From Actinomycetota bacterium (GTDB lineage Bacteria > Actinomycetota > UBA4738 > HRBIN12): a DNA stretch of 58,796 nt. Both the position numbers and the translations under genes were made by a program. Shown here piece after piece: positions 18,852 through 20,977 of this stretch; position 1 is the stretch's first letter; each line of letters opens with the position of its first letter. The stretch is from contig JBQTIP010000209.1 of NCBI GenBank assembly GCA_052388025.1, positions 1 through 58,796 of the forward strand, written 5' to 3'. Under the pieces are notes generated by a model. It had not been told where the DNA came from. It made no database searches and saw only the letters and a program-made list of their open reading frames with translations.

Positions 18852-19556
18852 TCCCGGAGGGATGCCAACCTCCGGCTGCCCCTCTCGCTGGCGACAGCGA
18901 TGAGTGCAGTTGGCTATATGCTGGAAAACCCGAGCATCTCGCGGTACCGGCGATGTCAGACCCCCGGTGTAGGGTAGGTCAATGACCGGTGACAATCCGT
19001 CGAGTGCGGACAATCAGCAGGAAAGGCCAGGACTCGAGCAGTGGATCGTTGGTTTCGTCGACGGTGAGGGCTGCTTTAGCATCCCGATCTTCCTGTGCCG
19101 AACGTGCAAGCTCGGCTGGCAAGTTCAGCCCGACTTCACGGTTACACAGGGTGAGCGGAGCGTGCACGTACTGTACGAGCTGAAGGAGTTCTTTGGATGC
19201 GGCCACGTCTCCATCAACCGGAGACGTGATAACCATCGGGAGCACATGTATCGCTACAGTGTGCGGGCTCTCGATGATCTCACTCGCCGCATCGTCCCGT
19301 TCTTCGAGGCAAATCCACTGAGAACGGCGAAGGCCGATGAATACGCGAAGTTCGCTTCGGTGATTCGGATGATGAGGAAAGCTGAGCAACTCAGCCTCAC
19401 TGGACTGATTCGAATCGCGAAGATCTCGCAGACGATGAATCATCGGAAGCCGTCTCGGTTCCTGGAATCCTCAGAGGCCATACGCCAGCCAGCTCTCGTC
19501 CGACGGGAGAGTTGAAGATATGGTCCGAGCCCCATGGCGACATGGGGGGCGACTCG
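18852..19556 (+). mobile_element. group I-like intron 1 in 23S rRNA (after the E. coli U1931 equivalent), carrying a LAGLIDADG ORF
   Basis: Conserved rRNA ...ACGGTCCTAAGGT stops at 18851 and resumes with AGCGAAATTCCTTGTCGGG at 19557. The insert ends in G. P3 is 18887-92 with 19484-89. P7 is 19476-81 with 19520-25. P9 hairpin with GCGA loop at 19530-47. Confidence 0.85.
18982..19515 (+). CDS. LAGLIDADG homing endonuclease (single motif, I-CreI-like size), intron-encoded
   Basis: 177 aa. Motif WIVGFVDGEGCF. N-terminal DNPSSADNQQER, typical of rRNA-intron LAGLIDADG proteins. The ORF 3' end overlaps the P7-P8 ribozyme core. Confidence 0.85.
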   Translation: MTGDNPSSADNQQERPGLEQWIVGFVDGEGCFSIPIFLCRTCKLGWQVQPDFTVTQGERSVHVLYELKEFFGCGHVSINRRRDNHREHMYRYSVRALDDLTRRIVPFFEANPLRTAKADEYAKFASVIRMMRKAEQLSLTGLIRIAKISQTMNHRKPSRFLESSEAIRQPALVRRES

Positions 19557-20228
19557 AGCGAAATTCCTTGTCGGGTAAGTTCCGACCTGCACGAATGGCG
19601 CAACGACTTGGGCGCTGTCTCAACCAGGGACTCGGCGAAATTGCACTACGAGTAAAGATGCTCGTTACCCGCGACAGGACGGAAAGACCCCGGGACCTTT
19701 ACTGCAGCTTGATGTTGGGTTCTGGCATGTGTTGCGTAGGATAGGCGGGAGGCTTTGAAGCCTCGACTCCGGTCGGGGTGGAGCCAACCTTGAAATACCG
19801 CCCTTCACGTGTTGGGACTCTAACCTTGGCCCGTTATCCGGGTCGGGGACAGCGTCTGGTGGGCAGTTTAACTGGGGCGGTTGCCTCCTAAAAGGTAACG
19901 GAGGCGCCCAAAGGTTCCCTCAGCCTGGTTGGCAATCAGGCGTCGAGTGCAAGGGCACAAGGGAGCTTGACTGCGAGACCGACGGGTCGAGCAGGTGCGA
20001 AAGCAGGGCCTAGTGATCCGACGACCCCTAGTGGTAGGGTCGTCGCTCAACGGCTAAAAGGTACCCCGGGGATAACAGGCTGATCGCTCCCAAGAGTCCA
20101 TATCGACGGAGCGGTTTGGCACCTCGATGTCGGCTCGTCTCATCCTGGGGCTGGAGCAGGTCCCAAGGGTCGGGCTGTTCGCCCGTTAAAGAGGCACGCG
20201 AGCTGGGTTTAGAACGTCGTGAGACAGT

Positions 20229-20977
20229 AAGTTGACCGTTGCTGTCGGTAAATCCGGCTAAGTGCTGGGAACACCGTGGATCCCGGGCTACTCGCCTTGT
20301 CAGAGGCAGCTGCTAGCGTGCTGACATGCGCAGTGACAACGCCTCGGGTGCGGTCAATCAGCAGGAAAGGTTGGATGCCTACATAGCGGGATACGTTGAC
20401 GGAGAGGAATCGTTCCACGTCGCCGTCCAGCGGAACCCATCGACGAGAGCCGGATGGCAACTCGTTCCGGAGTTCCACGTCAGCCAGAACGCCGAACGAC
20501 GTCAGGTCCTGGACCTGATCAAGGGACGGCTCGGCTGCGGACGGATCCAGGAGAACCATTGTGGTTCGGCGGACACATCACTGGTGTTCGTTGTTCGGAA
20601 CCGCGAGGACCTCCTGACGAGGGTGATCCCCTTCCTCGAGACGCAGCCTCTTCTGAGCAGCAAGCAGCAGGACTTCCTCGTCTTCGCCGGCATCGTCCGG
20701 GCGATGGGACGAGGGGAGCACCTGAGCTCGGAGGGGTTCCGGTCACTCAGGCGGCGAGCGCTCTCCATGAATGGAGGTGGTCGCTACCGCAGAGTGCATC
20801 GGGTGTAGGTATCCAGAATCCTCAGAGACCATACGCCGGACGCCGCTCCCTCCCCTCGTGCCCGAGGGGGACGGATCACCGCGGCGAAGAGATGGTCCGA
20901 CCTGCATGGCGACATGCAGAGCCGGGCAGAAATGACCCGGCCCCTGCCGAGACAGTCCCGGCGGGGTAACAGAAGTG
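20229..20977 (+). mobile_element. group I-like intron 2 in 23S rRNA (after the E. coli U2604 equivalent), carrying a LAGLIDADG ORF
   Basis: rRNA ...GAACGTCGTGAGACAGT stops at 20228 and resumes with TCGGTCCCTATCCGTCGTGGGCG at 20978. P1: exon GACAGT 20223-28 pairs with GCTGTC 20241-46 (U-G at the splice site). P10: GACCG 20234-38 pairs with 3' exon CGGTC. P3 is 20253-58 with 20835-40. P7 is 20827-32 with 20892-97. P9 with GCGA loop at 20902-19. Terminal G at 20977. Confidence 0.9.
20326..20808 (+). CDS. LAGLIDADG homing endonuclease (single motif), intron-encoded
   Basis: 160 aa. Motif YIAGYVDGEESF. N-terminal DNASGAVNQQER. Alignable along its length with the intron-1 ORF. Confidence 0.8.
   Translation: MRSDNASGAVNQQERLDAYIAGYVDGEESFHVAVQRNPSTRAGWQLVPEFHVSQNAERRQVLDLIKGRLGCGRIQENHCGSADTSLVFVVRNREDLLTRVIPFLETQPLLSSKQQDFLVFAGIVRAMGRGEHLSSEGFRSLRRRALSMNGGGRYRRVHRV

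Follow-up and report, generated by a model that had tools for sequence, protein, structure and literature searches.

Two LAGLIDADG-encoding group I introns in an actinomycetotal 23S rRNA gene and their relatives at the same sites in other genomes

In bacteria of the Candidate Phyla Radiation (CPR), 23S rRNA genes hold LAGLIDADG_1 genes at positions 1917, 1931, 1952, 2593, 2604 and 2657 (Tsurumaki et al, 2024; PMC11270868). The CPR endonucleases cluster by insertion site, with some close proteins at different sites that were read as ectopic transposition; an L1931 enzyme, I-ShaI, cuts its own site and dimerises, and the group I introns of 23IS9-11, 13 and 14 are listed as unreported in other bacteria (PMC11270868). 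Synechococcus sp. C9 and S. lividus C1 carry L1917, L1931 and L2593 introns in their large-subunit (LSU) rRNA genes (Haugen et al, 2007; PMC1995217), and archaeal introns have been typed as IB4 at LSU/1931 and LSU/1923 and as IA3 at LSU/2593 and LSU/2500 (Nawrocki, Jones and Eddy, 2018; PMC6125680). Here we analyse a stretch of 58,796 nucleotides from an Actinomycetota bacterium (assembly GCA_052388025.1, contig JBQTIP010000209.1, positions 1 to 58,796, forward strand; hereafter the window), in which the 23S rRNA gene carries two inserts at L1931 and L2604, each with a LAGLIDADG open reading frame (ORF1 and ORF2). A first-pass annotation had described the inserts as paralogues and as a within-operon example of ectopic intron spread.

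Our analysis makes it highly probable that the two introns, members of one family, represent separate, old, site-specific lineages that reached this genome separately and were not copied from one another. The window belongs to a metagenome-assembled genome (MAG; 3.06 Mb in 337 contigs, 96% complete, 68% G+C) whose closest named relatives are Actinomycetota MAGs. A genome search of this assembly gave one match, a single copy of the 23S region, and Rfam places the 16S and 5S genes on either side of it. The host gene, the two introns and their reading frames are as follows.

16711-21273, + strand: 23S rRNA gene, host of both introns (Rfam LSU_rRNA_bacteria, 2581 bits)
18852-19556, + strand: intron 1, group I, at L1931, 705 nt, with 3'-terminal G (19556); junction AAGGT/...G/AGCGAAA
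18982-19515, + strand: ORF1, single-motif LAGLIDADG gene, 177 aa, motif GFVDGEGCF, stop TGA at 19513-15; L1931 clade, 72% identical to the L1931 endonuclease of genome G027
20229-20977, + strand: intron 2, group I, at L2604, 749 nt, with 3'-terminal G (20977); junction GACAGT/...GTG/TCGGTCC
20326-20808, + strand: ORF2, single-motif LAGLIDADG gene, 160 aa, motif GYVDGEESF, stop TAG at 20806-08; L2604 clade, 84% and 80% identical to the L2604 proteins of genomes G039 and G024

Alignment to the annotated E. coli 23S gene equates the 672-nt exon between the inserts (19557-20228) with E. coli positions 1932-2604, so that intron 1 follows U1931 and intron 2 lies between U2604 and U2605. We take L1931 to be the helix 69-71 junction and L2604 to be the peptidyl-transferase loop. 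Exon sequence fixes both sets of boundaries unambiguously, and each insert ends in an omega-G. On sequence grounds, both are real group I introns, and loop P6 of each holds a separate single-motif LAGLIDADG gene.

Kinship within and between insertion sites

For comparison, we sampled 40 relatives and 107 loci from species-representative genomes and mapped inserts onto spliced 23S rRNA where the flanks allowed. The ribozyme family was defined by a motif pair, element Q plus element R. This pair is present in 135 introns at L1911, L1917, L1923, L1931 and L2604, plus one at L2593, and the family was found in about 100 species genomes, mostly Actinomycetota MAGs. A further 27 introns are without the pair (those at L1951, L2500, L2511, L2596 and L2262, most at L2593, and one divergent L1931 intron, L151); these reside in the same 23S genes as family introns, and in those at L1951, L2500, L2511 and L2596 and most at L2593 the blocks are missing even with 3–4 mismatches allowed. 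As judged from these motifs, one ribozyme family has colonised at least five 23S sites, namely L1911, L1917, L1923, L1931 and L2604. By reference to the published L1931 and L1923 introns, its subtype is probably IB4. L2604 is the sole site in the peptidyl-transferase region with an L1931-type ribozyme, which suggests that an intron long ago moved ectopically between domain V and the helix 69-71 region.

Within this family, the two window proteins are far closer to proteins at their own sites than to each other. Database homologues of ORF1 number more than 5000 and reach 75% identity (72–75% for same-site proteins), those of ORF2 more than 1400 and 88% (same-site 84–88%); one further ORF2 match, at 99%, is the window's own or a near-identical copy. 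Between ORF1 and ORF2, identity is 35–36% (about 83 bits by HMMER). As the native L1911, L1923 and L1951 endonucleases are equally close (28–41% identical to ORF1 and 33–45% to ORF2), this value is nothing special, and identity between the two ORFs is thus essentially no higher than to other LAGLIDADG proteins, an outcome that the first-pass annotation had itself named as counting against its reading. The same method gives ORF1 a better score with 5gkk, a single-domain protein of solved structure (113 bits), than with ORF2.

Placement and phylogeny follow the insertion sites. All 53 placeable ORF2-like genes (51–100% identical) lie at L2604, and of the ORF1-like genes 38 are at L1931, an L1911 intron (L128) contains another, and one further locus (L150) has an ambiguous boundary. 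A maximum-likelihood tree of 91 site-labelled proteins requires 7 label changes, compared with 38 when the labels are shuffled. In this tree, L2604 forms one clade and the L1931 clade is sister to L1923 (Shimodaira–Hasegawa-like approximate likelihood ratio test (SH-aLRT) 85), not to L2604. The approximately unbiased (AU) test rejects sisterhood of ORF1 and ORF2 (p-AU 2.1e-5), the constraint costing 171.6 log-likelihood units. A phylogeny with other rRNA-intron LAGLIDADG proteins had been proposed as a check on the paralogue claim; it groups the proteins by site, with ORF1 and ORF2 apart. Identity between the ribozyme cores of intron 1 and intron 2 is 68% over ~200 columns, compared with same-site maxima of 89% (intron 1) and 83% (intron 2) and between-site medians of 65–73%. 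The word paralogues therefore holds insofar as the introns are homologous and of one ribozyme family, and fails insofar as neither the tree, the AU test nor the 68% core identity makes them nearest relatives in protein or core.

The two lineages are also distributed independently. In the 22 species with an ORF1-type L1931 intron and L2604 on the same contig, L2604 was empty in 21 and held an ORF-less intron in one. Conversely, where an L2604 endonuclease intron was present and L1931 was covered (19 species), L1931 was empty in 11, held an ORF-less intron in 6 and an endonuclease intron in 2. Among the 40 nearest relatives, L2604 was occupied in 2/26 covered and L1931 in 3/18 covered, denominators that include one unpublished genome (G029) with neither intron. 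The suggested survey of rRNA gene copies and related genomes thus returned one 23S copy in the window's own assembly and introns that mostly occur singly elsewhere. Both lineages are hosted chiefly by Acidimicrobiia, Actinomycetes and Thermoleophilia, with single matches in candidate division Kazan (L093, at L2604), Dadabacteria, Gammaproteobacteria, Alphaproteobacteria and Chlamydiota.

Shared blocks and ribozyme anatomy

A direct comparison of the inserts by blastn gave two collinear high-scoring segment pairs (E 1e-14 and 6e-7). Two shared nucleotide blocks had been reported before; they exist, with the reported coordinates one base off in 3/4 cases (19466-87, 19517-47 and 20889-919). The first matches at 21/22 positions (19465-19486 vs 20816-20837) and the second at 26/32 (19516-19547 vs 20888-20919). 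The ORFs, aligned by eye in the first pass, do align end to end (35% identity, E 2e-30), and all three peptide pairs quoted there fall within the alignment. By these measures the similarity of the two inserts is far above chance.

Part of it is coded twice. The 35-nt P5-P4' stretch that codes for DNxSxAxNQQE matches at 30/35 positions between the window introns, and the identity of this block to intron 1 has medians of 28.5–32.5/35 in ORF-less introns and 30–31 in ORF-bearing ones. The N-terminal peptides and the first 40 coding nucleotides are therefore alike because RNA structure constrains the P5-P4' core, which is kept equally in ORF-less introns. The earlier remark that the first 40 coding nucleotides are very similar stands as a nucleotide match (37/45 over the first 45 coding nt) and falls as a sign of protein kinship, since this stretch is ribozyme core. 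Likewise, the ORF1 tail LESSEAIRQ is coded by the P7/P3' block and its similarity is RNA-constrained, and the GWQ..P.F.V.Q and PFxE..PL blocks are conserved across L1923, L1931 and L2604 endonucleases alike. We read the shared N- and C-terminal peptide pieces as by-products of ORFs that run into a conserved ribozyme core. Much of the protein similarity first noticed is thus forced by RNA structure where the ORFs overlap the core.

The elements of intron 1 are as follows.

18854-18880, + strand: P1, predicted pairing as read from the sequence
18991-19026, + strand: P5-P4' (element Q)-J block, which also codes DNPSSADNQQER; kept in ORF-less introns
19027-19032, + strand: P6 5' strand CCAGGA, partner TCCTGG at 19460-19465, with the ORF body in the loop between; P6 columns 75–94% paired, with many compensatory pair types
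19465-19486, + strand: first shared block, J6/7, P7 5' strand (19476-81) and start of P3' (19484-89); sequence GAATCCTCAGAGGCCATACGCC
19516-19547, + strand: second shared block, J8/7, P7 3' strand (19520-25) and P9 hairpin CCCCATG-GCGA-CATGGGG (19530-47); P9 98–100% paired, with CG/GC/TA/TG exchanges

The start of ORF1 lies in the P5 extension and its body in L6; the frame runs on through P7, P3' and P8 to a stop at the beginning of the J8/7-P7' block. In the predicted P1, the guide GCC (18878-80) pairs with exon GGU (18849-51), which places U1931-G18878 at the splice site, and the P1 extension is a 7-bp hairpin (18854-60 with 18869-75). This P1 is weak, with just three exon pairs and a guide within the conserved UGCCCC motif; some 50 L1931 introns have the (C/U)UGCCCC motif preceded by a variable hairpin, whose stem shows compensatory changes. 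A canonical P10 was not found in intron 1; UCGCU at 18884-88 could pair with exon AGCGA but sits 3' of the guide.

The elements of intron 2 are as follows.

20234-20246, + strand: guide region, read from the sequence; same layout in genomes G024 and G039
20335-20370, + strand: P5a'-P5'-P4' (Q)-J block, which also codes DNASGAVNQQER
20371-20382, + strand: P6 5' strand TTGGATGCCTAC, 12 bp with 20805-20816 (GTAGGTATCCAG), enclosing the ORF body
20816-20837, + strand: first shared block, J6/7, P7 5' strand (20827-32) and start of P3' (20835-39)
20888-20919, + strand: second shared block, J8/7, P7 3' strand (20892-97) and P9 hairpin CTGCATG-GCGA-CATGCAG (20902-19)
20921-20966, + strand: 3' extension, P9.1 (20921-26/20936-41; 89–95% paired) and P9.2 (20942-49/20959-66), followed by GUAACAG near the 3' end

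ORF2 begins with an ATG within the 3' strand of P5b, occupies L6 with its body and stops within the 3' strand of P6, directly ahead of the P7 block; the first-pass observation that ORF2 ends before this block and ORF1 reads through it was accurate. In the guide region, GACCG (20234-38) pairs with 3' exon CGGUC as P10 and GCUGUC (20241-46) pairs with 5' exon GACAGU as a 6-bp P1, with U2604-G at the splice site. The 5' guides of the two introns do differ, as reported, and each is matched to its own site. The 3' extension of intron 2 is absent from intron 1; L1923 introns and L1931 introns of the type in genome G009 have this long tail as well. The P9.2 loop (20949-20956) reads GAGACAGT and repeats the final 8 nt of the 5' exon (20221-20228) exactly. 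The L2604 introns of G024 and G039 do not keep this repeat, which may have arisen by chance or may compete with P1.

Pairing was counted in an alignment of 125 ORF-excised or ORF-less family introns, with the rows for P5 of intron 2 and P8 of intron 1 left out. Canonical pairs make up 99–100% in P3, 97–100% in P4, 87–100% in P7 and 98–100% in P9, and 75–94% in P6, 75–98% in P8 and 89–95% in P9.1. Compensatory exchanges occur at many positions, and P3, P4, P7 and P9 each show at least two pair types at several positions. Both introns have the core helices P3 to P9, with interleaved P3/P7 topology and covariation. Single-sequence minimum free energy folds of the ORF-excised introns did not recover the group I topology, because P3 and P7 are interleaved.

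Endonucleases, predicted activity and rival readings

Both proteins match Pfam LAGLIDADG_1 (PF00961), with 79.7 bits for ORF1 and 62.6 bits for ORF2 (cutoff 23.1), and both ORFs are full length, with no stops or frameshifts. The motif of ORF1 is canonical and looks intact. ORF2 departs from its relatives at one codon.

20407-20409, + strand: Glu28 codon GAA of ORF2, in place of the last Gly of the motif; found in 1/44 members of the L2604 family

The motif reads DGEG(S/T/C)F in 41/44 ORF2 relatives; ORF2 keeps the acidic residue and has Glu for the final Gly. The region 18700-21100 was compared with a probable source DNA run, a second soil DNA run and two metatranscriptomes from soil. In a contig of a different soil study (run X2), 97% identical to the window, position 20408 is G, giving GGA and hence Gly. 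The change in ORF2 may represent a freshly impaired enzyme or a base error at ~7x depth.

Beyond the anatomy, homology, site-specific clades and independent distribution that we observed, activity can be inferred by analogy with described elements. Each endonuclease, as a homodimer, would cut a 23S site without an intron, repair from an intron-bearing copy would then insert the intron (homing), and the ribozyme would excise itself from the pre-rRNA. Removal of the introns must take place here, since no other rRNA copy was found and each of the two sites falls in a functional centre. Under our preferred reading, each site would have its own old lineage of guide sequence and endonuclease within the family, and the two lineages would have entered this genome on separate occasions, either inherited or through homing that followed DNA transfer.

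Several observations weigh against this picture of two genuine, active and independently acquired introns. Neither window intron reaches the gathering threshold of the Rfam model Intron_gpI (RF00028), 50 bits: in a permissive search intron 1 scored 23.8 bits (E 0.0025), and for intron 2 even the permissive search gave no match to this model. The cause is the ORF of ~440 nt that splits the model at P6; homologues without an ORF score 55–64 bits at L1931, L1911 and L2604, including same-site homologues at 64.3 bits for L1931 (L052) and 55.4–56.8 bits for L2604. With Glu for the last motif Gly, ORF2 may be inactive. Soil RNA contigs join 18851 to 19557 and 20228 to 20978 and are not assignable to this organism; exon depth is community-wide, and such joined forms are indistinguishable from the intron-less genes of other organisms. 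All comparison genomes are MAGs, in which conserved intron cores could yield assembly chimeras. Finally, deep branches of the endonuclease tree are weakly supported (SH-aLRT 74–89), so that any order of site colonisation would be provisional.

Against this background, three other explanations of the two inserts were weighed. It is barely credible that one intron was derived from the other in this operon or lineage, by reverse splicing or a shift in endonuclease specificity, to give a recent paralogue pair. Such an origin would suit the presence of both in one gene, the blocks of 21/22 and 26/32 nt and the same ORF placement, and ectopic moves do seem to occur in the family (in L128, and in the L1911 cores of G039 and L114, described below). 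However, it has to contend with proteins that are 35% identical to each other and 72–88% identical to same-site kin in other genomes, with the AU result (p 2.1e-5), with an L1931 clade that groups with L1923 rather than L2604, with a core identity of 68% that is an ordinary between-site value, and with two lineages that are widespread, mostly without each other. Same-site kin being far closer, sisterhood rejected at that p-value and the lineages mostly living apart, the within-operon example of ectopic intron spread is not supported. At the other extreme, the resemblance might amount to generic group I core consensus plus membership of the LAGLIDADG superfamily, with no specific common ancestry. 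The shared blocks do overlap the classical conserved elements R and S, Q and P, and ORF1 and ORF2 are no closer to each other than either is to fungal mitochondrial I-OnuI-family domains in the PDB. Yet the 68% core identity over ~200 columns takes in a peripheral P5 extension and a GCGA-capped P9, the ORF architecture is identical (start in the P5 extension, the 35-nt P5-P4' block at 30/35, body in L6), and the L1951, L2500, L2511 and L2596 introns and most L2593 introns occur in the same genes without the shared blocks. This makes a merely generic likeness very improbable: similarity is not limited to the generic core, and the homology claimed in the first pass, beyond the generic group I and LAGLIDADG level, is borne out by one ribozyme type and the same ORF position.

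One or both inserts could instead be decaying relics that still splice, with a dead endonuclease, and persist by vertical descent alone. The GYVDGEESF motif of ORF2, unique among 44 family members and set beside a 97%-identical soil variant that retains Gly, would fit such decay, as would ORF-less derivatives, which are common at the two sites (nine each at L1931 and L2604 in a first tally). Full-length ORFs free of stops and frameshifts and the canonical motif of ORF1 speak for intact genes, and the Gly-to-Glu change could be a sequencing error at ~7x depth, its effect on the enzyme being presumed. On balance we consider decay unlikely. Taking these points together, we keep to the reading of one family with separate, old lineages at L1931 and L2604, and draw a corrective for the window: two look-alike introns in one gene are no evidence of local duplication.

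Unusual relatives and comparison with described systems

Some relatives suggest recent reshuffling of cores and endonucleases. The L1911 intron of L128 (CALMBW010000018.1, 1384-2077), whose guide GCCGCC pairs with exon GGCGGU, carries an endonuclease 72% identical to ORF1 and nested in the L1931 clade. The same locus has an ORF-less intron at L1931, 20 nt downstream of the L1911 intron. Here either the endonuclease gene was exchanged between neighbouring introns or the contig is an assembly chimera. In G039 and L114, the L1911 cores fall within the group of window-type L1931 cores (SH-aLRT 98) and are paired with unrelated endonucleases. For L128, G039 and L114 alike, the contigs are from MAGs, and chimeras via conserved cores are possible. 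We put forward tentatively, as a possibility short of our favoured account, that the L1931-type family of Actinomycetota is actively reshuffling, its cores and endonucleases moving as separate modules between co-resident introns at five sites. If this is true and the cases are no chimeras, the ~125 introns would allow ectopic transposition and endonuclease exchange to be dated and tested.

Other special cases concern splice sites and intron spacing. An ORF-less L1931-type intron in 23S sequence around E. coli 1931-1954 (L030 of G024, which is the same as L055, and L051) begins with 23 nt, AGCGAAATTCCTTGGCAGGCAAG, that nearly repeat the downstream exon, AGCGAAATTCCTTGTCAGGTAAG; its 5' junction therefore still reads as an uncut endonuclease target. 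Under the boundaries used, this intron is without a terminal G. Long-tail L1931 introns (L079/L128, L111, L120, L121, L124, L141 and L142) end in GTAACAG-N5-7 and are not G-terminal if the 5' splice site follows U1931; a 2-nt shift (L1933) restores the terminal G but gives G-C, not U-G, at the 5' splice site. These introns either have no omega-G or use an unusual splice site. Absence of omega-G has reportedly been seen in one Coxiella intron.

Stacked introns separated by micro-exons occur in the 23S genes of relatives (L130, L138, L106, L142, L114 and L118), with up to three introns within a 3.4-kb stretch and micro-exons of 8–20 nt. The micro-exon between L1923 and L1931 is 8 nt long, CCTAAGGT; those between L1931 and L1951 and between L1911 and L1931 measure 20 nt, that between L2593 and L2604 11 nt, and those of G027 and G039 14 and 12 nt. 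L2500 introns of ~806–812 nt (L039/L047 of G028, L075 and L094) have a second ribozyme type, and their longest ORFs (137–192 aa) gave no BLASTP similarity to the two LAGLIDADG ORFs of the window. The contigs of G014, G023, G019 and G033 all break at about E. coli 2489-2494, just upstream of the L2500 site, where presence/absence polymorphism of an L2500 intron may have halted the assembler.

Multi-intron 23S genes are common in uncultured soil Actinomycetota (Acidimicrobiia, Actinomycetes and Thermoleophilia), a phylum in which the L2604 intron, until now described for CPR bacteria, is widespread. This bears on rRNA gene annotation and on primer- and probe-based surveys, and it makes available a large natural collection of single-domain LAGLIDADG enzymes whose targets are known. 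In a literature search of incomplete coverage, we found no paper on 23S introns in Actinomycetota or on PDB 5GKK, and nothing under the name L2604 group I intron.

Among solved structures, the best matches of both ORFs (E 1e-31 to 1e-37) are the I-OnuI family (I-PanMI, I-SmaMI and I-LtrI) and 5gkk, a 170-aa 'putative homing endonuclease'; the LAGLIDADG_1 fold is common to these enzymes and the window ORFs. Except for 5gkk, these enzymes are two-domain fungal mitochondrial monomers; each window protein has one domain. Far weaker matches to the window ORFs came from I-CreI and I-CeuI, both single-domain enzymes of rRNA introns.

By description, the Synechococcus introns (PMC1995217) resemble those of the window in number, with several group I introns per 23S gene, each with a single-motif LAGLIDADG gene, and in sharing L1931; there too, the reading frames begin in a peripheral loop and extend into helices of the core. 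The second Synechococcus site, L2593, lies 11 nt upstream of L2604, and the intron there differs from intron 2 of the window in its short P5 and its P7 extension. In archaea (PMC6125680), as in this survey, sites are split by ribozyme type, with L1911-L1931 set apart from L1951, L2500 and L2593, and large LAGLIDADG insertions in P6 break covariance-model matches as they do here. L2604 is absent from the archaeal table, whereas here it carries an L1931-like type and not the type of its neighbours L2593 and L2500.

The CPR introns (PMC11270868) are like those of the window in having the same two sites, group-I-like introns, single-domain LAGLIDADG_1 proteins and both ORF-bearing and ORF-less forms at one site. 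They differ in host, the window being from a 3-Mb, 68% G+C Actinomycetota MAG, and I-ShaI is likened to ORF1 by description, not by sequence. If 23IS13 is position 2604, as the ordering in that paper suggests, L2604 introns outside the CPR add hosts to this type. Overall, the window holds a known kind of element in a new host group; for CPR bacteria, both L2604 introns and endonuclease clades specific to a site have been published before.

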